Of a DNA stretch of 64,000 nucleotides, positions 70-13,842 are shown in pieces (position 1 is the first letter of the stretch; the number at the start of each line of letters is the position of its first letter). Position numbers and translations under genes: made by a program. The notes beneath the pieces were generated by a model. That model was not told the DNA's origin. It worked only from the letters and a program-made list of their open reading frames with translations, and made no database searches. This stretch comes from Tequatrovirus BCH953P4, in sequence record OZ035789.1; one strand, given 5' to 3'.

Positions 70-1251
70 TTACTCATTAAATTCTTCCATATCACTTAAC
101 TGCTCGAGGTCAGTTTCTAAATCAGCAGCTGATTTACTTTTACTTTCTGGAGATTTAAATTTTTCAACCTTTGAGTTAATCAATTCATCAACTTCCGCTT
201 CAACAATTTCATTACTATCAATAGCACCTAACTGATAAGCACGTTTAATAGCATCTCGGAATGGTTGATGCTTAAATAAAGGACCCCAGAATGTAGTGCA
301 GTTGGTATCTTTTGCACGCCAAGATTTTTCTTCGCGAATCATCTCACCGGTTTCTTCATCAAGAAATTCACGGGCATACCAGCCATTTTTAGGTTTTACT
401 ACAAATCCTAATTCTAGAGCCATATCTAACAATCCAGAATAAGGATCGATACCACCGTCAAATTTAACATCAATAAAGAATTTACTTTTTTCTTTAACGG
501 TACGAGATTTTTCTACATTTAGAACAAATTGATACCCCTGAAGATCAGAACCATCTTTAATTTGACGTTTACCGATAATGAATACAGTATCAGCCGAATA
601 CATTACGCCTGTACCGCCTGTCATCACGGTTTTACTAAACATTTCAATTGTTTCAATTGTATGGTTAACCGCAACGCACGGAATATTTTTAATGCTAAAA
701 TAAGGAGTAACAATACGGAATAATGACTTCAGTGATTTAGCACGAGTCATATCTGCCACAGATTTTTCATTCAAGGCATCTTCCGTTTCTTTCTTAGAAG
801 CCATATTACCGATTGAGTCGATGAATACAATAACCTTTTCACCACGCTCAATAGTTTCAAGCTGATTCACCATATCAATTTTCAGCTGTTCAACTGATTG
901 GATTGGCGTATGAATTACTCGTTCCGGGTCAACTCCCATGGATCGCAAATAAGCTGGAGTAATACCAAATTCGCTATCATAGAATAGACAAACCGCATCA
1001 GGATATTTGTTCAAATACGCCGCAACCATAGTCAAAGACATATTTGATTTAAAGTGTTTAGAAGGCCCTGCGAAAATAGTTAAACCAGACTGCATACCAC
1101 CATCAATCGCGCCAGAAATAGCAATATTAAGCATTGGGATTTTTGTACGGATTACATCCTTTTCATTAAAGAATTTAGATGTAGTCAGTTCAGCAGTCAT
1201 TTTAGAAGTGGAAGCTTTAATCAAACGGGATTTTAAATCTGCAATAGACAT
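70..1251 (-). CDS. uvsX: UvsX RecA-like recombinase
   Basis: 393 aa; RecA-fold ATPase core; near-identical in length and recalled sequence to T4 UvsX; position next to the beta-gt locus and gene 42. Confidence 0.93.
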   Translation of the reverse strand: MSIADLKSRLIKASTSKMTAELTTSKFFNEKDVIRTKIPMLNIAISGAIDGGMQSGLTIFAGPSKHFKSNMSLTMVAAYLNKYPDAVCLFYDSEFGITPAYLRSMGVDPERVIHTPIQSVEQLKIDMVNQLETIERGEKVIVFIDSIGNMASKKETEDALNEKSVADMTRAKSLKSLFRIVTPYFSIKNIPCVAVNHTIETIEMFSKTVMTGGTGVMYSADTVFIIGKRQIKDGSDLQGYQFVLNVEKSRTVKEKSKFFIDVKFDGGIDPYSGLLDMALELGFVVKPKNGWYAREFLDEETGEMIREEKSWRAKDTNCTTFWGPLFKHQPFRDAIKRAYQLGAIDSNEIVEAEVDELINSKVEKFKSPESKSKSAADLETDLEQLSDMEEFNE

Positions 1252-1328
1252 TCATTTTTTCCATAGGCATCATTATATTTTCCTCACTGGTTAAAGATAG
1301 AGTAATTATAACACAATAAATTTAGGCA

Positions 1329-2171
1329 TTAATCAACTGCTATTGGATGAATAGCATTAAACTTATGAAATGCTTCTGATTTTTCTTTACGCGAAACGCA
1401 CATGCGAAGAACCTTTAGTGGTTCATCTTCTTCACCCAACGATTTTCGTTTTTCAATATTAGAAGTTTTCCAACGAGCTTGCTCTGGAAACTCTCTATTG
1501 ATTTGCTCAAGCGCTCTATTATGTTTAGAATTACTACGAATTGAACTGCACCCGCCAGGAGCTTGTGCTTTTCCAGATACAACCAGATATTTGAACAAGG
1601 CCAAATGCGGATAACCTTGATTAATTAAATTGAGAAATGCATACATATCTTCGCATAAATCAATTTTTCCATATCCAATTTGTTCTGTCGTAAGTTTTCC
1701 AAGGTCATACCATGTATTCGTGAATCCATATGAATTTTCACGATAATTACCCCAAGATGAAGTAATTTTAAAAATTGGTAGACGAGCATGGCCATGATAA
1801 TACCCGCAATCCATGGCATCTTCAACATATTGAATCAATTCATAGAACTGTTCACGAGTTAATTGATTAATTTTATCTACACAACGACGATCATCTCTTT
1901 TTCGCATTGAACTCATACGAATAGTAGTATCATCGTCAATCATCCAGATTCGTTGACCTGCATACATATCAGTAATTGCTTTACGAGTACCGGCAATTCC
2001 GTTTACATCATCAGGAATAGTTATAATTTTAGCTCTAGACCCATAGGCATCATAATAAGCTTTTTCTTCATGTTCACGCACTACAATATGGGGTTCATAA
2101 TCAGTCGGAAACATATCAAGGGCAGAAACTGCCCCGACACGCTGATAGCTCGGAATTACGAATTGAATCAT
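1329..2171 (-). CDS. GT-A fold glycosyltransferase with DxD motif (WMIDDDTTI) at the T4 beta-gt locus; not T4 beta-gt; possibly the T2/T6-type beta-glucosyl-HMC-alpha-glucosyltransferase
   Basis: 280 aa ORF between uvsX and gene 42; DxD motif; T4 beta-gt is about 351 aa with a different N-terminus (recalled). Confidence 0.7.
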   Translation of the reverse strand: MIQFVIPSYQRVGAVSALDMFPTDYEPHIVVREHEEKAYYDAYGSRAKIITIPDDVNGIAGTRKAITDMYAGQRIWMIDDDTTIRMSSMRKRDDRRCVDKINQLTREQFYELIQYVEDAMDCGYYHGHARLPIFKITSSWGNYRENSYGFTNTWYDLGKLTTEQIGYGKIDLCEDMYAFLNLINQGYPHLALFKYLVVSGKAQAPGGCSSIRSNSKHNRALEQINREFPEQARWKTSNIEKRKSLGEEDEPLKVLRMCVSRKEKSEAFHKFNAIHPIAVD

Positions 2172-2809
2172 TTAAGTGCCTTACATTTATCAAAATGGTA
2201 TCTTGTCATATTTGGCCCACGTCCTTTTAGTCCGCAATGCGGACATATTTTTTCTATCAAATTATGAGGTTTTCCTTTACGATTTTTAGACATCGTTTCT
2301 TTAATTATTTTAGCTTTTTCTACGCCAAAAATTTCTTCATAAGTTTTACCAGAATTTTCCTTGGCTCGATTTATAATTCCATATGCCTGCTCATTTTTAC
2401 CATACATTGGATTACCTTCGCCTTTCATTCTTTTAGAATGATCAGGACGCTTGATTCCACGAAAGGCATTTCCGCACTTATATCTTTCTTCTGGAGATAG
2501 TTTTTTACCGTACATTCCATTTAATTTGCCTGGAAAACTTCCTCCCCATGCTTCATTCTTTAAATTATATGAATCCGGACAATTAGCAGCATCTAAACAA
2601 GTTAAAATAATTTCTTCAACCTGTCTAAACATTGGTCCTTCATATAATATTTCTTTATTAAAGGATTTTATTCCATATTTCTTTTTAACATGTTGCCAAA
2701 CTACACCCGAACCATCATAATTCGGGTTGTGACCATCATGACTTCCTATATACCACTTTTTAGTTTTAGGATGTTTATACTTATAAACATGCGGCACATT
2801 TACTTCCAT
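2168..2809 (-). mobile_element. free-standing GIY-YIG homing endonuclease (Seg-like) with C-terminal zinc-finger-like module
   Basis: 213 aa; N-terminal VYKY...KWYIGSHDG GIY-YIG-like motif; C-terminal CPHCG...GPNMTRYHFDKC module; inserted between gene 42 and the glycosyltransferase. Confidence 0.65.
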
Positions 2810-3540
2810 TTTCCAGTATAATCCTTTTTAGCAATATGAGTCTCACCGGTGTTCCACCAATGGTCAACTAAATAAAACTGATTTTCGTACACATGAAGAC
2901 TTCCAACGTTCCATATAATAGAACCTGCTTTATATTGCCGCGATGGGTCGCCTGCATTCAAATCAGATACTAATTTATCTAGTACGTATTTTTGCCAAGC
3001 ATAATCATTACGATAGCCTGCCCAGCAATCATTGCTTCTCATGCTAACAACCGCATTGACTTTCTTATCACGAATCAGGTACTGTACTGTATTAGTACAC
3101 ATGAAATCTGACATACCATCTTTATTGTAATCAAATTGCATGGATGGACGAGTATAAATCATGATACCACGTCGAGAATCAGGATTTTGACCAAGTTCAG
3201 CTAAACACATATCATACTGGGCATAGTTATCTTCTGACCAAATAGCCCAACCATAATTCGAGTTAATTTCGCCTTTAGAAGATGCTACTTGTTGCCAAAT
3301 CTTCGGTGTTTCACCCGGAATATCTTTAACAAACAAACTCTTAGATTTATACCATTCAAGTTCACGCTGAATGTATTCATCATTAAGAGCGCCAAAAATA
3401 AACGGTTCATCTGCTACAAATGATGCGCCAATAATTTCAATAGTTTTAACACCAGTTTTATCAACTACGAAATCTTTTTCCTTTAATGCAGTTCCCAAAT
3501 AAAAACGGATTTCTTCAACTGTCATAGAGTCATTAATCAT
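2800..3540 (-). CDS. 42: dCMP hydroxymethylase (thymidylate synthase fold)
   Basis: 246 aa, same length as T4 gp42; conserved position upstream of the glycosyltransferase and uvsX. Confidence 0.88.
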   Translation of the reverse strand: MINDSMTVEEIRFYLGTALKEKDFVVDKTGVKTIEIIGASFVADEPFIFGALNDEYIQRELEWYKSKSLFVKDIPGETPKIWQQVASSKGEINSNYGWAIWSEDNYAQYDMCLAELGQNPDSRRGIMIYTRPSMQFDYNKDGMSDFMCTNTVQYLIRDKKVNAVVSMRSNDCWAGYRNDYAWQKYVLDKLVSDLNAGDPSRQYKAGSIIWNVGSLHVYENQFYLVDHWWNTGETHIAKKDYTGKWK

Positions 3541-3693
3541 TTAAACCTCAATTGATGCATTCATATTTAAATTGTAACAGTAATAAACCCCACCCTATGA
3601 TAAGAGTTGGAATCATAGCAGGAACTGTTACGCTATAGTATATACTTATTATAACCATCAAGATTAAAAGCAACACTGCTATAATTTTGCTTT

Positions 3694-3945
3694 TCATTCT
3701 TTCTCTCTGATGATAATTACCTGATTTGGCTGTGCAGACTTTTTAGTTTCACCAGCAATTGACCAAATAAATGTAATAAACCAACCAATAATTGACCAGT
3801 TAAACAGTAAAGATGTGAAAAAGATTCCTACTGTCGATTTTGACCCACGCATCAAGGCGATAAACCATGGAAGCATGTATATAATAATAGCCAACACGCC
3901 TGAAACTAAAACCATAAAAATTGAACCTGCTACTAAAGTTTCCAT
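3694..3945 (-). CDS. imm: Imm superinfection immunity membrane protein
   Basis: 83 aa, two hydrophobic helices; T4 imm is 83 aa and lies between 43 and 42. Confidence 0.8.
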   Translation of the reverse strand: METLVAGSIFMVLVSGVLAIIIYMLPWFIALMRGSKSTVGIFFTSLLFNWSIIGWFITFIWSIAGETKKSAQPNQVIIIREKE

Positions 3946-4514: not shown

Positions 4515-7211
4515 TCAGCCAAACAGGAAGTCTAACGAAGCTTTTTCTTCATAGTCCATACCAGCCGATTCACACATACCCGCAAGCGGTTTAACAAACG
4601 ATTTTTGGAACAAAGTTGAGTAGTCAATCCAAGATAGTACATCAGAACGAATTTCTTTTGGAAGTTCTGTACCCGACGGCCAAGCAATGCACTTGTCGCC
4701 AAATGGATTTCCTTCACGTAATGGAAGAACCATTACCTTATTTCCATCCAAAATTGGAGCTACACCTAGACCGCTAACAGCTCGACGATAAGTTAGCACA
4801 CCACGAATATGGAACGGGCATTTAAATCCTGGCCAACCTTTATCATCATATTTCGCTATATCGTTCGCAGTTTTTACTTCAGCAATAACTTTATAGTCAA
4901 GTTGACGATATTCTTTCTCGAAGTTTTTGTAATATTCTTGGACAGACTCTTCACCTTCCTGAAGAATACGACGAATACTTTCTTCGAGAGCTTCTTGCAC
5001 TGCTTTTGGTGTTGAACTCTGCTGAGTTTCCATACCCATGATTTTTAGATGTGGTTCAGCAAATCGCTTATCTTCCATATCATAAACGTTCAGAGCATAA
5101 CGCTTTTTCGCTTTCCAAAATCCACCAACGCCCTTTGAACCAAGTGGAGGGCAAGAAATAGCTTCACGGTCCATATGCATCAGATGCTCGCGGTTATTCA
5201 TATAATCACATAACTCGCGATATGCAACATCAATCATAGGTTCCATCTTTTTCTTACCGAACTGATTCATGAATTCAACTAAATCGTTCTGCTCTTTGAA
5301 TCGGTCAAGACCTACTTTTTCAATAACTTTATCTACGCAAACATATACCGAATCAGTATCACCTGCTGCAATGAAATCTTCGCCATTAGTTCCGCATACT
5401 TTATTCAGATATTCATTAATTTTACGAGCAATCCACTGAATACCAACTTGGCCGAAAATTGTGATAGCAGTAGCATTTCGCAAATCATAGTAACGGAAAT
5501 GAATATTACCAAGAGCACCATAAAGACTGTTAATAAGAATTTTACGGTTCAGCTGATTTGTGTTAGCAAGTGTAGCTGCTTTTTCACATTCTTCGATCAG
5601 ACTATTAAGAACAGATTCAGTGTAATTCGATAATTCATTTAAGAAATCATCACTGAACTTAACATATCGTTCAACTTCTGGTTTAGTTGAACAAGACCCT
5701 GCGCCTTTCATAATAATCTTTTTAATAGCTTCGGCATTCATTTCTTCAGCGAACATTTTCTTTTTCCAGTCTTTACGCTGGAAAAATACTTTAGCGATTT
5801 CCTTTGGAATGATACCTTCTTGATGCTTATCATACATCCATCCATTCGGAGAACAAGAATATTCATCACTCGGTTTAGGAGCTGTTCCTGCAATATATTC
5901 ATGAATTGGATGAACTTTAAACTGCCCACGAATAGTCTCAGGACTAATGTTAACCTGACGAATAATGCTAGGATACAGAGACGTCAAGTCAAAACTCATA
6001 ATATATCGACGAGCAATTGGTTTAGGTTCAAACACAAATGCACCCGGAAAACTTTGTTTAACGTGCGAACCCTGTTGAGGAATAACCTTATGTTCACCTT
6101 TCAATGAGTTAAAAATAATAGCATCCCAAGTTTTAATAGGACTCATTACGCCAGAAAAAGGCATTTTAGCATAATAAGACATACTTAAAACTAGATCGAT
6201 AAACCCGCGAATTTTATCAATTGCTTGAACTGATTCTACGTCAATGATGTTATAACTAATGTATCGTTGATGATTAGTTTCACGAAGTTTATTAATAGGA
6301 CCGTCGTATGGTAATTTACCTTTTTTGGTTTCATGTTGAGCAACTGATTCCAAAGAGAATGACGGCAAATTAGTAAAAGCGAATTTCTTGTACAAATCTA
6401 AATAATCAAGAATAGATACACCATCAATAGAATAAATTTCTTTGCTACCGTACATATTTTGAATTAGTTTAGATTTTACTCGACCGATTGGAGAGAAGCG
6501 TTTCATACTACGTTCACCGAGAACCATTTTAACACGATTCATGATATACGGAACGTCAAATCCCTCAATATTCCAACCAGTAAAAATAGCAGGTCGTTTC
6601 TGTTCCCAAAGATTGATATATTCCATGAGCATATCACGCTCGTTATCGAATGGCATATAAATTACTCGGTCAAGAATTTCTTGAGGAACTTCATCACCAC
6701 CTTCACAGTCAAGCTTAGCAGCTAACTTTGCATCCCATTTTGATACTGAACCGTACATTGAATTCAAAAGGTCGAAAACATAAAAACGATCGTCAATTGA
6801 ATCGTAATGAGTGATAGCATCAATTTCATATTCAGCTTTCATTGGGTCAGGAAATTTATCACCAGTAACCTCAATGTCACAGTTAGCTACGCGAACAAAT
6901 TTTCGGTCATAAACAATTTCTGAACCATATGTATCACTAATGTAAGCGAGTTTAAAATCGTTCATACCGAGAGCTTCGAGACCGATGTCTTCCATTCGCT
7001 TCATCCAGTCTCGTGCATCTTTCATTGATGGAAATTTTTGAGGAGCGCAATTTTTACCATAGATGTCTTTGTACTTTGACTCTTCCTTACAATGCCTAAA
7101 CATAGTCGGAAGATATTCTACTTCACGGGTACGTTCCTTTCCGTTTTCATCAATATAACGTTCAACAATGTTATTTCCGACTGTTTCGATAGAGATATAA
7201 AATTCTTTCAT
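4515..7211 (-). CDS. 43: DNA polymerase (family B) with 3'-5' exonuclease
   Basis: 898 aa, same length as T4 gp43; polymerase motifs including YGDTDS. Confidence 0.95.
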   Translation of the reverse strand: MKEFYISIETVGNNIVERYIDENGKERTREVEYLPTMFRHCKEESKYKDIYGKNCAPQKFPSMKDARDWMKRMEDIGLEALGMNDFKLAYISDTYGSEIVYDRKFVRVANCDIEVTGDKFPDPMKAEYEIDAITHYDSIDDRFYVFDLLNSMYGSVSKWDAKLAAKLDCEGGDEVPQEILDRVIYMPFDNERDMLMEYINLWEQKRPAIFTGWNIEGFDVPYIMNRVKMVLGERSMKRFSPIGRVKSKLIQNMYGSKEIYSIDGVSILDYLDLYKKFAFTNLPSFSLESVAQHETKKGKLPYDGPINKLRETNHQRYISYNIIDVESVQAIDKIRGFIDLVLSMSYYAKMPFSGVMSPIKTWDAIIFNSLKGEHKVIPQQGSHVKQSFPGAFVFEPKPIARRYIMSFDLTSLYPSIIRQVNISPETIRGQFKVHPIHEYIAGTAPKPSDEYSCSPNGWMYDKHQEGIIPKEIAKVFFQRKDWKKKMFAEEMNAEAIKKIIMKGAGSCSTKPEVERYVKFSDDFLNELSNYTESVLNSLIEECEKAATLANTNQLNRKILINSLYGALGNIHFRYYDLRNATAITIFGQVGIQWIARKINEYLNKVCGTNGEDFIAAGDTDSVYVCVDKVIEKVGLDRFKEQNDLVEFMNQFGKKKMEPMIDVAYRELCDYMNNREHLMHMDREAISCPPLGSKGVGGFWKAKKRYALNVYDMEDKRFAEPHLKIMGMETQQSSTPKAVQEALEESIRRILQEGEESVQEYYKNFEKEYRQLDYKVIAEVKTANDIAKYDDKGWPGFKCPFHIRGVLTYRRAVSGLGVAPILDGNKVMVLPLREGNPFGDKCIAWPSGTELPKEIRSDVLSWIDYSTLFQKSFVKPLAGMCESAGMDYEEKASLDFLFG

Positions 7212-9235: not shown

Positions 9236-9922
9236 TTAAAAATCGTGGGTAGAATCAGCTTCAAGAGCTACCACATAATTCGCGTGTTCACCTTCAAATT
9301 TAGCAGCACCTTGTTTACCTTTTGCCCAGAGCAGAAGTTTATAATTTCCTGGTTGCATTTTCATATTTGCCATATTGATAATGAAATTAAATGTATTTTC
9401 ACCATCATAATCACCAAGAGTCAAAGAATATTTAACACGGGTCAGAGCAGAATCTTCTACTTTATTAAAACCGTTAATTACGATTTTACCTTCTTTTACT
9501 GTGATAGCAATTGTATCAATCTGCAGACCGCGAGATACACGCAACAGCTGTTGAAGGTCTTCAGCTTTAATTTCGGTAACAACAGATGCTACCGGGAATG
9601 GAATTGGTTTATTAGGAGCAACTACTGTACTCGGATCGGCTGCTGGCCAAAAAATTGTTGAGCGAGCATCAGCAATTTTAATATTTCCATCTTCTGATTG
9701 CGAAATTTCTGCATCATCATTAACTAGAGACAGAATACCGAGAAAACCGTTCAAATCGTAAATTGCTACATCAAAATCAATAACGTCAGAAATATTTGCT
9801 TCCGCATAAGTTGTACCATTAACTGCGCGAGTCATAATAAATTGACCGGATTTAAGCATAATACCGGAGTTAATAGTAGCGAAATTTTTCAAAATATTCA
9901 GTGTGTCTTTAGATAATTTCAT
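9236..9922 (-). CDS. 45: sliding clamp
   Basis: 228 aa as in T4 gp45; position upstream of 44/62. Confidence 0.9.
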   Translation of the reverse strand: MKLSKDTLNILKNFATINSGIMLKSGQFIMTRAVNGTTYAEANISDVIDFDVAIYDLNGFLGILSLVNDDAEISQSEDGNIKIADARSTIFWPAADPSTVVAPNKPIPFPVASVVTEIKAEDLQQLLRVSRGLQIDTIAITVKEGKIVINGFNKVEDSALTRVKYSLTLGDYDGENTFNFIINMANMKMQPGNYKLLLWAKGKQGAAKFEGEHANYVVALEADSTHDF

Positions 9923-10806
9923 TTCAATTTCCTATTTACATAATAGTTAGACCAGGACCGTACAGCACCCTGATAAGATTCGTCGTTAAACCCATTAGCT
10001 ACTGCAATTTTACGAAATTTATTATAACTCGGTTTTCCGTAAGCATGCCATAAAGATTTTAATTCATCTTCATGTTCAATCCAAGTTCCTCTAGCTTTAG
10101 ATTTTCTAAATTTTGATTTGAATTCCGGTGAATTATTTCTAACAGTTGCTTGAATTGAAGCCCTCTGTCTTCTTTCAGCATTATTCCATAACTCTTTTTG
10201 AGATTTAGAAATTTTTGATTTTACACTTTCTGAATTCATTATATCACTAAACTTTTTAGCATAACTACAATCAAGATATTTCAATTTCATCTTATTTGAA
10301 AGTTTAAGCTTTTTCTCATCGGTCCAGTGATTCTTCATTGAATTAGATATTTTGTATTTTACGTCAGAACTATGTTTGTAACCTTTACGAATACCAACAT
10401 AATCGGGCGTAATTTCAGATTGCGAAAGCTTTACAATTTTTCCAGTTAAAACATTTTTATATGTTCCATATCCTTTAGCGCCAATTAAAGTATTTTCATC
10501 TGCGTATGCTTTATTAAAATATTTTATATTACTTTTTGCTTTAACTTTTAATTGAAAAAATCTTTCCAATTTTCTTGGATCTAATATAGTTTCAGCTAAA
10601 ATTTTGACGGTATATTTAGTGGTTTTAATAAGCTCAAAATATTCATCGCTATAACTCGATGACACGCTTCCAGTATAAATCTTTCCAGCTGAATCAATTA
10701 TATTTGTTCCATCGAAAATTGCGTCAATTTTCGAACCTATATAATAACATGGAAAAATATTTTTAGCTTCCCGCTCTGGAAAGCTAATAAGATATACTAA
10801 ATTCAT
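9919..10806 (-). mobile_element. free-standing GIY-YIG homing endonuclease (Seg-like), inserted between rpbA and 45
   Basis: 295 aa; N-terminal VYLISF...CYYIGSK GIY-YIG motif; lysine/serine-rich C-terminal DNA-binding-like repeats; 4-bp overlaps with both neighbours. Confidence 0.7.
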
Positions 10807-11444: not shown

Positions 11445-12161
11445 ATGAATTATAAACTAATTTATGAAAAGTTAATCTCTAATGCTAAATCTCGAAAACT
11501 TGATTGCTATACTGAATCTCATCACATTATACCACGCTGTTTAAATGGCAGCGATGATGCTTCAAACTTAGTAGATTTAACACCAGAAGAGCACTATGTA
11601 GCTCATCAACTTTTAGTAAAAATTTATCCTTCTGAACCAAAATTAGTATATGCTGCTAACATGATGACAGTTTCCACGAAATACGCTAAACGCAACAATA
11701 AAACTTTCGGTTGGATTCGTCGTAAACTCTGGGAAATAGAAAAGAACAAAGAATTCTCCCAGGAGACACGAAAGAAAATGTCTGATGCAGTAGCTAATAA
11801 AGCAAGACTAACTTGTCCTCATTGCGGTAAGTCTGGATTAAGCGGGAATATGAATCGTTGGCATTTTGATAACTGCCCAAATCACCCTAATCCTAAAGTT
11901 AGACCACCAATGTCTAAAGAACACAGAAATAATATCTCAAACGGGCTTAAAGCAATCGTTCTTGAAGAAACATCTTGCGAATTCTGCGGAATGATAGGCA
12001 AGAAATGCGTTATCGCAGCGCATAGAAATTTCTGCAAGAAAAATCCAAATGGACGCAAGAAAACTGAAAAGACTGGTACTTGCGTCCATTGTGGTAAAGT
12101 TACCACTTTCGGAAATTTATCAAGATGGCATAATGATAACTGTAAATATAAACCTAGCTAA
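11445..12161 (+). mobile_element. free-standing HNH homing endonuclease (Mob-like) with three C-terminal CxxC...H...C zinc modules; opposite strand to all neighbours
   Basis: 238 aa; ESHHIIPRCLNGSDD...NLVDLTPEEHYVAH HNH motif; repeats TCPHCGKSGLSGNMNRWHFDNC and TCVHCGKVTTFGNLSRWHNDNC. Confidence 0.8.
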
Positions 12162-13842
12162 TCTTAGCTAAACTAAATCTACCAACTTTTTCCATCTGAA
12201 TATGCTGACCATATTCTTGTGGGTCATGGTCTTTATGCGAAATTATGAAGAAGTTGGTATCCTTCAAACCATCTAAAATTTTAGCTACATTTTTAATACC
12301 TTCAGCATCAAATGCACCGTCATACACTTCATCAAGAAATAAACAACTTATTTTAACACCTGAAACTTTTTCAGCAATATCACGCCAAGTAAATAAAAGA
12401 GCAATATCAATTCGTGCTTTTTCACCTTGACTGAATGAAGCATAACTAAAATCTTCACGACCACGGGATTTAATTGTCTCATTAAATTCTTCATCTAATG
12501 TAAACACATAATCCGCTTCCATTATTTTAAGATAATGGTTAATCTGCTTATTAAATAATGGAATGTACTTTTTAATAATAGCACCTTTAATACCAGAATC
12601 TTTGAGCATATCAGTCAAAATTCCTCGGTGGTATTTTTCCATTACTAAATTAGTTTTTGTCTTAACAATTTTATCAAGTTCTTCTTGAAGCAGTGCTATT
12701 TCATCAGCATGGTCAATAAACTCAGAAGATGCTTTTTCTATAGCCGCTTTAACCTTTTTAGCTTTATCTACTGCTGCGATCAAAGATTGCTTTTTATTGC
12801 GAATATCATTTGCCAACGACTGTTGGGTTTTAATATTATCTCGGTATTCATCAACAAGAACTTTTAAATTATCACGATGTGTTGAAAGCTGTTCAAACGA
12901 ATGCGTACATTCAGAAACTTTATCTTTAATTTTAGAAACAACTTTATCACCGGAACTCAATTGTGACAAACAGGTTGGACATAATCCACCTTCGTGATAC
13001 ATATTAATGACTTTATTATACGAGTCAATTTTTGATTTAATTAAAAATGCTTCTTGACCGATTTTATTAAATGCATCAGTTGGGTCTTCGTCTAAAACAA
13101 TATTAACTAATCTTTCATTAGCTTCTTCTATTTCCGATTTTAGCGTTCTAGCTTCTTTTGCCAAATCATCATACATATTTTGCAGACGAGTAAGGTTGTC
13201 ACCCGTTAATTTTTTCTGGCGTTCAACGTTATCATTATATATTTTAATTTGTTGGATAATACTATCTTTTTTAACATCAAGCACTTGGTTCTGCGAATTT
13301 AATTCGCGTATTAGTGCTTTATTAAGCTTATCCATTTCAGCTAATGTTCCTACCTCAAGCAGGTCTTCCACAAGCTTTCTTCGCGCAGGGGTCGACAAAC
13401 CCATGAAAGGGGTATACCCTGCTGTACCAAGGACAACAATCTGCTTGAAACTGGCATATGACATTCCGATAAGCTGTTCAAATTCTGCTTGGAAATCTTT
13501 ACTGCTGGCAGATTCATTAAGACGTGTACCGTTAACGGTGATTTCGAAAACGTTTGGTTTTTGTCCTCTTTTGATATAGTACTTTTTCTCATCATATTCC
13601 ATCCACAGTTCAACTAAAAGTTCTTTCTTATTTGTGCTGTTTATTAATTGACCTTTCTTTACATCACGAAATGGCTTGCCAAAAAGCCCAAACGTGATGG
13701 CTTCTAGCATAGTAGACTTACCACCGCCATTTCGTCCAGTAATAAGAGTTTTTTGAACCTTATCTAATTGAATGTCAATCCCATTTTGACCAACTGACAT
13801 TATATTTTTATATTTTACTCTATTAAGTTTAAAATTCTTCAC
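12154..13842 (-). CDS. 46: recombination nuclease subunit, SbcC/Rad50-like ATPase
   Basis: 562 aa; Walker A GRNGGGKST; long coiled coil; C-terminal signature and Walker B. Confidence 0.92.
   Translation of the reverse strand: MKNFKLNRVKYKNIMSVGQNGIDIQLDKVQKTLITGRNGGGKSTMLEAITFGLFGKPFRDVKKGQLINSTNKKELLVELWMEYDEKKYYIKRGQKPNVFEITVNGTRLNESASSKDFQAEFEQLIGMSYASFKQIVVLGTAGYTPFMGLSTPARRKLVEDLLEVGTLAEMDKLNKALIRELNSQNQVLDVKKDSIIQQIKIYNDNVERQKKLTGDNLTRLQNMYDDLAKEARTLKSEIEEANERLVNIVLDEDPTDAFNKIGQEAFLIKSKIDSYNKVINMYHEGGLCPTCLSQLSSGDKVVSKIKDKVSECTHSFEQLSTHRDNLKVLVDEYRDNIKTQQSLANDIRNKKQSLIAAVDKAKKVKAAIEKASSEFIDHADEIALLQEELDKIVKTKTNLVMEKYHRGILTDMLKDSGIKGAIIKKYIPLFNKQINHYLKIMEADYVFTLDEEFNETIKSRGREDFSYASFSQGEKARIDIALLFTWRDIAEKVSGVKISCLFLDEVYDGAFDAEGIKNVAKILDGLKDTNFFIISHKDHDPQEYGQHIQMEKVGRFSLAKIS

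Follow-up and report, generated by a model that had tools for sequence, protein, structure and literature searches.

Tequatrovirus BCH953P4 carries, between gene 42 and its glucosyltransferase gene, a free-standing Seg-like GIY-YIG homing endonuclease gene, which we consider probably to target the 3′ part of gene 42. We analyzed 64,000 nucleotides (nt) of this phage (sequence record OZ035789.1), hereafter the window, and call the open reading frame (ORF) in question ORF213 after its length in amino acids (aa). The first-pass annotation had described it as a Seg-like GIY-YIG ORF lying between gene 42 and the glycosyltransferase gene and overlapping both, and this description holds. The proposed target rests on the population genetics of the locus: ORF213 is linked to the end of gene 42 and not to βα-gt.

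ORF213 Is Cleanly Inserted at the Junction of Gene 42 and βα-gt

The window belongs to a T2/T6-like Tequatrovirus; positions 1300-3600 are 97.5-98.4% identical to many deposited Tequatrovirus genomes, and all genes in the region of interest lie on the minus strand. Its main features are:

2168-2809, minus strand: ORF213, free-standing Seg-like GIY-YIG endonuclease gene (213 aa, ATG start; PHROG 314 'homing endonuclease', 8e-30)
2534-2794, minus strand: GIY-YIG catalytic domain, residues ~6-92 (VY9...Y20IG...E65...YN82), from alignment to the T4 Seg proteins and I-TevI, conservation, Foldseek and profile alignment to 1ln0
2390-2527, minus strand: linker with two NUMOD3-like motifs (NGMYGKK..., GNPMYGKN), residues ~95-140, from a sub-threshold Pfam match and residue conservation
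2183-2245, minus strand: C-terminal I-TevIII-type zinc finger CX2CX12HX3C, residues 189-209, from a regular-expression search, shuffles and ligand conservation
2172-2803, no strand: insertion of 632 bp compared with T2, where the site is empty, from the annotation of T2 and a manual alignment of the junctions
2800-3540, minus strand: gene 42, dCMP hydroxymethylase, the upstream neighbor (Pfam PF00303 Thymidylat_synt, 1.3e-14; T2/T4 annotation)
2800-3084, minus strand: 3′ part of gene 42 (gene nt 457-741), co-inherited with ORF213, from the divergence between genomes with and without the ORF
1329-2171, minus strand: βα-gt, the T2/T6-type β-glucosyl-hydroxymethylcytosine (HMC)-α-glucosyltransferase gene (Pfam TAGT, 1.8e-9; T2 annotation)

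The ATG of ORF213 falls within gene 42, 10 nt before its end (ATGGAAGTAA), which makes a 10-nt overlap with the gene 42 stop, and its own stop shares 4 nt (ATGA) with the start of βα-gt. At the empty site of T2, the gene 42 stop overlaps the βα-gt start in the same ATGA (junction TGGAA/ATGATTC). Since the window differs from this arrangement by 632 extra bases, the insertion is a clean one that kept both translational overlaps. Its ends are bounded by a 6-nt repeat, TAAATG, and its boundaries are therefore ambiguous by those 6 nt. The gene 42 of the window itself is about 90% identical in nucleotides to that of T4.

Copies of ORF213 are named in GenBank as 'hypothetical protein', 'putative homing endonuclease', 'site-specific intron-like DNA endonuclease' and, once, 'SegD', the last being a similarity label only. 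A literature search found no paper on an endonuclease at the junction of gene 42 and βα-gt.

A Seg-Type Catalytic Domain With a NUMOD3-Like Linker

From N- to C-terminus, the protein is made up of a GIY-YIG domain, a linker that resembles NUMOD3, a helical stretch and a single finger. By blastp, it matches T4 SegA-E with E-values of 3e-12 to 9e-7 and SegF with 5e-7, and gives no match to T4 SegG. Non-conservation of the GIY-YIG residues, which the first-pass annotation had named as grounds for abandoning the identification, is not what we found: in an alignment of 30 homologs (41-69% identity), Y20 and G22 are invariant and Y9, E65, Y81 and N82 nearly so. The ORF213 residues Y9, Y20, E65 and N82 correspond to I-TevI Y6, Y17, E75 and N90, and HVY9 and Y20-I-G22 lie at the N-terminus with the usual GIY/YIG spacing of about 10-11 residues.

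An AlphaFold2 model built on the same alignment has a mean predicted local distance difference test (pLDDT) score of 86.6, with N-terminal blocks at 85-97. Its best PDB matches in Foldseek are the two structures of the I-TevI catalytic domain, 1mk0 and 1ln0 (probability 0.99-1.0, template modeling (TM) score 0.62-0.66, root-mean-square deviation ~3 Å), with 1mk0 at the top (probability 1.0, TM score 0.66).

The linker model NUMOD3 (Pfam PF07460) reaches 18 bits on ORF213, below its gathering cut-off of 20.4, and is annotated in many homologs. Linker residues G98, G101, N133, P134, M135 and G137 are nearly invariant among the 30 homologs. TIGR01453 scores 21 bits on ORF213 against a cut-off of 56. 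The possibility that ORF213 is a defense-system nuclease was also considered and rejected, as PADLOC returned only its 'homing endonuclease' models.

Linkage to the 3′ End of Gene 42 but Not to βα-gt

ORF213 is present in 76 phage records at an identity of at least 95%, and in 64 of them at 99% or more. For comparison, gene 42 was found in 501 records and βα-gt in 473, so that 76 of 473 carry the ORF, a minority among genomes that are collinear in other respects. The site is empty in T2, T6, RB32, fPS-65 and others, and carriage varies even within one species (present in PYps5T, absent from PYPS2T).

We compared gene 42 in six carriers and nine non-carriers, and βα-gt in six and six, position by position for each gene. 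Within the first 456 nt of gene 42, carriers and non-carriers are not differentiated. From nt 457 to 741 they diverge by 12-24%, as against only 1-7% among the carriers themselves. Seventeen differences are fixed between the two groups, all between nt 594 and 738 of gene 42, and the encoded proteins read DCWAGY/PS/YENQ/IAKKDYTGKWK in carriers and DVVFGF/ST/YSRH/IVKKDYNGEWK in non-carriers. In βα-gt, there are zero fixed ORF-linked differences, and the alleles closest to that of the window belong to ORF-less phages (fPS-65, 98.5%; FriedrichZschokke, 97.9%). With the differences confined to the upstream side and none in βα-gt, ORF213 is thus linked only to the 3′ end of gene 42, that is, to its last ~230-285 nt. 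Mean pairwise identity among the six carriers rises from βα-gt (95.4%) through gene 42 nt 1-456 (96.4%) and nt 514-741 (98.2%) to ORF213 itself (98.9%). The linked tract likely holds the polymorphisms that make up the target or confer immunity.

These data bear directly on the proposal of the first-pass annotation that an endonuclease placed between two DNA modification genes could drive their joint inheritance as a cassette. In crosses, for example, βα-gt might in this way replace the T4-type β-gt. All 76 Tequatrovirus carriers do have βα-gt, and none of the ~28 gene 42 records without a βα-gt match carries ORF213. Moreover, if gene 42 were cut in a phage with β-gt, downstream homology would presumably be missing as far as uvsX, and repair would have to bring βα-gt along. 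Set against this, the 0/28 count comes from non-independent records and has little power, no βα-gt alleles are linked to the ORF, the closest ones are found in ORF-less phages, and the 5′ 456 nt of gene 42 are equally unlinked. In other lineages, the homologs are followed by a T4-type β-gt or by something other than a glycosyltransferase gene, namely an IMPDH-like gene, a helicase gene or an unknown. We therefore judge the cassette proposal unsupported among βα-gt phages and unlikely overall; co-inheritance is conceivable only in crosses with β-gt phages.

Mosaic Gene 42 Alleles, Disrupted Copies and Expression Signals

A synthetic 'empty site' query matched eight ORF-less records of an intermediate type. 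T4_ev151 and PD112 have the ORF type of gene 42 from about nt 500 to about nt 700, followed by a last ~40 nt and a junction of the ORF-less type, and pSe_SNUABM_01 has the CWAGY block only and is likewise ORF-less. These mosaics are what conversion from a break inside gene 42, resolved short of ORF213, would leave behind, and recombinational loss of the ORF would leave the same pattern.

Some copies are disrupted. That of Shinka has a +1 frameshift in an A-run and has lost its finger, as read from the translation; ORF213 is split into two coding sequences (CDSs) in REP2 and PYps5T, and REP3 is so annotated. The frameshifts in Shinka, REP2 and PYps5T may also be homopolymer sequencing errors. 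The first-pass annotation had held that disruption without effect in related isolates would speak against its identification. Disrupted copies do exist, yet they are expected of a selfish homing gene and hence leave the identification standing; occasional frameshifted copies fit the life cycle of such genes.

The window copy of ORF213 has no promoter of its own and no strong ribosome-binding site, and a sigma-70 scan gave no excess of sites there. The T4 late-promoter consensus TATAAATA is absent upstream of the copies in the window, in Klebsiella phage Mexia and in Yersinia phage MHG19, where the genes overlap. It is present, 20-50 nt before the endonuclease start, in the short gap between the hydroxymethylase-like and endonuclease genes of four metagenomic homologous loci (L021, L024, L026, L028). 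The window copy is probably translated by coupling to gene 42.

Two hairpin-like sequences lie in and beside the ORF. The codons for CPHCG in the finger (2230-2244) form a perfect 15-nt palindrome, GTCCGCATTGCGGAC, which on the plus (antisense) strand has a terminator-like hairpin score and precedes a T-run; the coding sequence probably produced it by chance. Just past the ORF213 stop, within the first 20 codons of βα-gt, there is a GC-rich hairpin, GGGGCAGTTTCTGCCC (2119-2135, minus strand), that is kept in ORF-carrying and ORF-less phages alike and is labeled a terminator in fPS-65 and DalCa.

ORF213 could also be a decaying or inactive relic that has lost homing and now spreads in the Tequatrovirus pool by ordinary homologous recombination and hitch-hiking. 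The disrupted copies of Shinka, REP2/REP3 and PYps5T, the missing promoter and ribosome-binding site, and the ORF-less genomes with ORF-type gene 42 tracts, which could be losses, would all suit such a relic. The state of the gene points the other way. In the records examined, where only part of the copies were translated, at least 72 of the 76 are free of disruption, and the high share of near-identical copies (64/76 at 99% or more) does not suggest decay. The catalytic residues and zinc ligands are nearly invariant across the 30 homologs, and the ratio of nonsynonymous to synonymous substitution rates (dN/dS) between genera is 0.13-0.15, with dS saturated. ORF213 is also more conserved than its flanks, and its carriage differs within one species. 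A relic thus appears improbable.

A Lineage Faithful to Gene 42 Across Phage Genera

Our homolog search returned 70 proteins, 69 of them beyond the window's own cluster, and about 58 are near full length at 43-70% identity. We examined the context of 12 homologs (43-69% identity, window copy excluded), from Mexia, MHG19 and ten metagenomic contigs, including variants with a helix-turn-helix (HTH) tail or a divergent N-terminus. Each of the 12 directly follows a PF00303 gene that shares its strand, with distances of -29 to +60 nt. The upstream genes encode 220-252 aa, with one of 338 aa, and where a contig has two PF00303 genes (L026), the endonuclease gene follows the short, gene-42-like one. 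Every upstream gene carries a '...ND' motif (Asp-type), at a position that we take to correspond to Asp179 of T4 gp42, the mark of cytosine specificity. By contrast, the gene downstream of the endonuclease varies among βα-gt, T4-type β-gt, IMPDH-like and helicase genes, and unknowns. A fixed spacing between the codons of the conserved SLHVY motif and the endonuclease start was ruled out, since this distance ranges from 64 to 174 nt.

The history of the linked tract extends beyond the genus. In MAFFT alignments with Mexia and MHG19, both of which carry the ORF and neither of which is a Tequatrovirus, identity over the 3′ tract of gene 42 reaches 74-80% for the ORF-linked type, as against 65-68% for alleles without the ORF. 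Over the first 456 nt, the two types of allele are equidistant at about 71%. This gain of about 10 percentage points suggests that the tract joined the Tequatrovirus pool together with the endonuclease gene.

Such fidelity could also reflect a benefit to the phage. A co-opted nuclease might exclude rival alleles, make breaks that promote local amplification or recombination, as reported for SegB, or act as a DNA-binding regulator in the manner of the I-TevI autorepressor. There are precedents, as SegB promotes the segmental amplification undergone by anti-defense loci (PMC13096335) and I-TevI doubles as a repressor (PMC2988022), and the lineage is stably tied to genes of the hydroxymethylcytosine (hmC) pathway across many phage lineages. 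The absence of ORF213 from 84% of close relatives nevertheless argues against an important benefit, and co-option is compatible with homing and so is no exclusive alternative. As a separate explanation we find it hardly likely.

A more ambitious reading of the same data is that ORF213 belongs to a distinct, widespread GIY-YIG lineage that is specialized on the 3′ ends of gene-42-like genes in hmC phages and crosses genera with the end of gene 42. Such a lineage might even drive swaps between β-gt and βα-gt cassettes when phages co-infect, because homology resumes only past the variable downstream gene. We put this forward as a tentative possibility.

An Old Zinc Module Shared With HNH Nucleases

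The finger of ORF213 is CPHCGLKGRGPNMTRYHFDKC (2183-2245), with the arrangement C189-X2-C192-X12-H205-X3-C209, and its four ligands (C189, C192, H205, C209) are nearly invariant among the 30 homologs. The CX2CX12-13HX3C motif binds zinc in I-TevIII and is needed for its DNA binding (PMC1865063, Robbins et al.). By analogy, the ORF213 finger would bind zinc and take part in DNA binding. I-TevIII of T4, a defective remnant, has two finger copies that match the pattern, and a motif scan found the CX2CX12HX3C finger in none of T4 SegA-G.

The six-frame translation of the window has three matches to CX2CX12-13HX3C, compared with 0.08 expected from shuffles. The others lie in a second endonuclease gene:

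11445-12161, plus strand: Mob-like HNH homing endonuclease gene with three zinc modules at 11814-11876, 11976-12035 and 12081-12143 (PHROG 655, 8.6e-69; motif scan)

The first-pass annotation had seen the ORF213 module three times in this HNH ORF. Two of these are canonical (CPHCGKSGLSGNMNRWHFDNC, 11814-11876; CVHCGKVTTFGNLSRWHNDNC, 12081-12143), and the third is a CX2CX11HX3C variant (CEFCGMIGKKCVIAAHRNFC). Both ORFs match PHROG 655. The proteins are alike over ~105 residues that comprise the NUMOD3-like region and the finger (blastp, 6e-9), and 13 of 21 finger residues are identical. In nucleotides, the modules agree at only 54-62% of positions, and at 43-52% of third codon positions, which indicates old common ancestry and rules out a recent exchange of zinc-finger DNA between the two genes in the window genome. 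The proposed shuffling of domains between nuclease families thus stands as a general process but not as an event involving this pair.

Searched by phmmer with residues 166-213, a set of 1.84 billion representatives yielded 993 proteins at an E-value of 1e-3 or lower, in which the fingers usually occur two to four in tandem and up to eight. Purpose-built profiles assigned the N-termini of the best 146 of these 993 proteins to the Seg/I-TevI-type GIY-YIG family in 62 cases and to the Mob-type HNH family in 26; the others are further GIY-YIG and HNH_3 variants and fragments. Within the ORF213 family itself, three members have the finger swapped for an I-TevI-like HTH tail, and there is one member with two fingers and one whose N-terminus is a canonical PF01541 domain. 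It is well supported by these comparisons that the finger has been shuffled between GIY-YIG and HNH nucleases, a process that is old, general and widespread. Shuffling of modules among such enzymes has already been stated as a principle (PMC1865063).

The HNH ORF sits between genes 45.2 and 46, on the strand opposite to all its neighbors, and its end overlaps that of gene 46 (12154-13842, minus strand) by 8 nt. RB32 and RB68 are among the 57 phage records that have it, and T4 has nothing at that site.

A Model for Homing Into Gene 42

We propose that, in a mixed infection, the ORF213 protein would bind DNA through its C-terminal modules and, somewhere in the final ~40-240 nt of gene 42, cut the allele that lacks the ORF. 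Repair by recombination with the carrier genome would then copy ORF213 together with the stretch of gene 42 between cut and insertion, and the carrier's own allele would be spared by the polymorphic stretch (DCWAGY/PS/YENQ versus DVVFGF/ST/YSRH). The ORF-linked gene 42 tract and the ORF-less mosaics would be an indirect population signature of site-specific cleavage of the ORF-less allele and of super-Mendelian inheritance with co-conversion of the flanks. In the longer term, the lineage may have specialized on the 3′ ends of dCMP hydroxymethylase genes and crossed genus boundaries with that segment. SegF acts in gene 56 and SegG in gene 32; both cut at 200-330 bp from where they are inserted, and they co-convert flanking markers. 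By analogy with these two and with SegB, the linked tract in the upstream gene suggests that ORF213 also cuts at a distance. Free-standing endonucleases are in general able to cleave a long way from the place where they are encoded (PMC13096335).

Several points weigh against this model or against the identification of the nuclease. Cleavage and the target site are predictions from sequence comparison, the comparison of carriers with non-carriers covers six and nine genomes (six and six for βα-gt), and the database counts come from non-independent records. Linkage to the 3′ end of gene 42 could also stem from one import and ordinary recombination since then, homing no longer being at work. Expression of ORF213 is an assumption, because the window copy lacks the late promoter that several homologs have. 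As for the catalytic domain, the Pfam GIY-YIG models PF01541 and PF19835 give no match to ORF213 at E-values up to 0.1, although one or the other is recorded for some homologs, and its PDB sequence match is weak (E = 0.14). An equivalent of I-TevI Arg27, in the first helix, was not found by alignment. Its place is taken by a YxGSG...KKYG segment, as in T4 SegA-F, and none was found in the aligned T4 Seg proteins either.

Neighboring Genes and Other Endonuclease Genes

The region around the locus is further made up of:

70-1251, minus strand: uvsX, from region gene order
between gene 42 and gene 43, minus strand: 42.1, imm and imm.1, from region gene order
4515-7211, minus strand: DNA polymerase gene 43, from region gene order

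Gene 42.1 (3548-3697, minus strand) encodes a membrane-like protein of 49 aa and also occurs in RB32, SsoM113 and FL33. It is unannotated in T2, T4, T6 and SHFML-11, which at the level of annotation have a ~150-nt unannotated gap between gene 42 and imm.

On the other side of the locus, the gap between βα-gt and uvsX is only 77 bp in the window, and some Tequatroviruses hold a different endonuclease gene there. Examples between the transferase gene and uvsX are found in phage PD112 (locus L031, 1-153) and in T4, where it is segA (L004, 3571-4236). Homing genes can thus flank the transferase gene on either side. In Salmonella phage pSe_SNUABM_01 (L009, 1-2071), a homing endonuclease gene inserted at 376-1098 apparently divides uvsX into two CDSs, labeled 'recombinase' and 'DNA repair protein'.

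A SegG-like ORF of 295 aa (9919-10806, minus strand; PHROG 655, 3e-32; PHROG 7504, 3e-17) separates gene 45 from rpbA, with whose stop it overlaps. Only 23 phage records have it, which makes it a third patchy endonuclease gene within 12 kb.

Significance and Comparison With Known Systems

With ORF213, the T-even homing endonuclease repertoire would gain a Seg-type member with a probable target in gene 42. The locus combines in one natural example a flank linked on one side only, ORF-less mosaics of 'converted' appearance and decaying copies, and one endonuclease lineage tracks the dCMP hydroxymethylase gene across very different phages. The gene also accounts for a mosaic boundary in Tequatrovirus genomes, and its identification amends the 'hypothetical protein' and 'SegD' annotations. 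No principle is changed, as the shuffling of binding modules between GIY-YIG and HNH nucleases is already established and several GenBank records already speak of a putative homing endonuclease. What is mildly new is the lineage-wide fidelity to the dCMP hydroxymethylase gene, along with the tidy signature of co-conversion.

ORF213 shares with the T4 Seg proteins the N-terminal motif set YxY...YIGxH...YxGSG...KKYG...E...YN...GG and, like their genes, it is free-standing between conserved genes, overlaps the end of the upstream gene and is patchy in distribution. It is nevertheless orthologous to none of them: identity is at most 34% and limited to the N-terminal ~110-180 residues, the locus is another one (T4 segA lies on the other side of β-gt), and ORF213 has a finger whereas SegA-G have none.

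The finger is instead the point of likeness to I-TevIII, which has the same CX2CX12-13HX3C motif. I-TevIII is an HNH enzyme with two fingers that is encoded in an intron (RB3 nrdB) and acts as a dimer, whereas ORF213 is a free-standing GIY-YIG gene with one finger. Much the same applies to the HNH ORF of the window, which shares the NUMOD3-like and finger region and differs in its catalytic domain, its three fingers and its locus.

Sequence similarity of ORF213 to I-TevI is marginal, yet the I-TevI catalytic domain is its best structural match, and the two follow the same plan of nuclease, linker and DNA-binding modules. I-TevI is encoded in the td intron, and its zinc finger is of another kind (Cys4) and serves as a ruler; the HTH tail found in part of the ORF213 family is I-TevI-like. 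I-TevI cuts 23-25 nt from its insertion site, inside td, and both enzymes are tied to a gene of the thymidylate synthase family as their target, td for I-TevI and, by our reading, gene 42 for ORF213.

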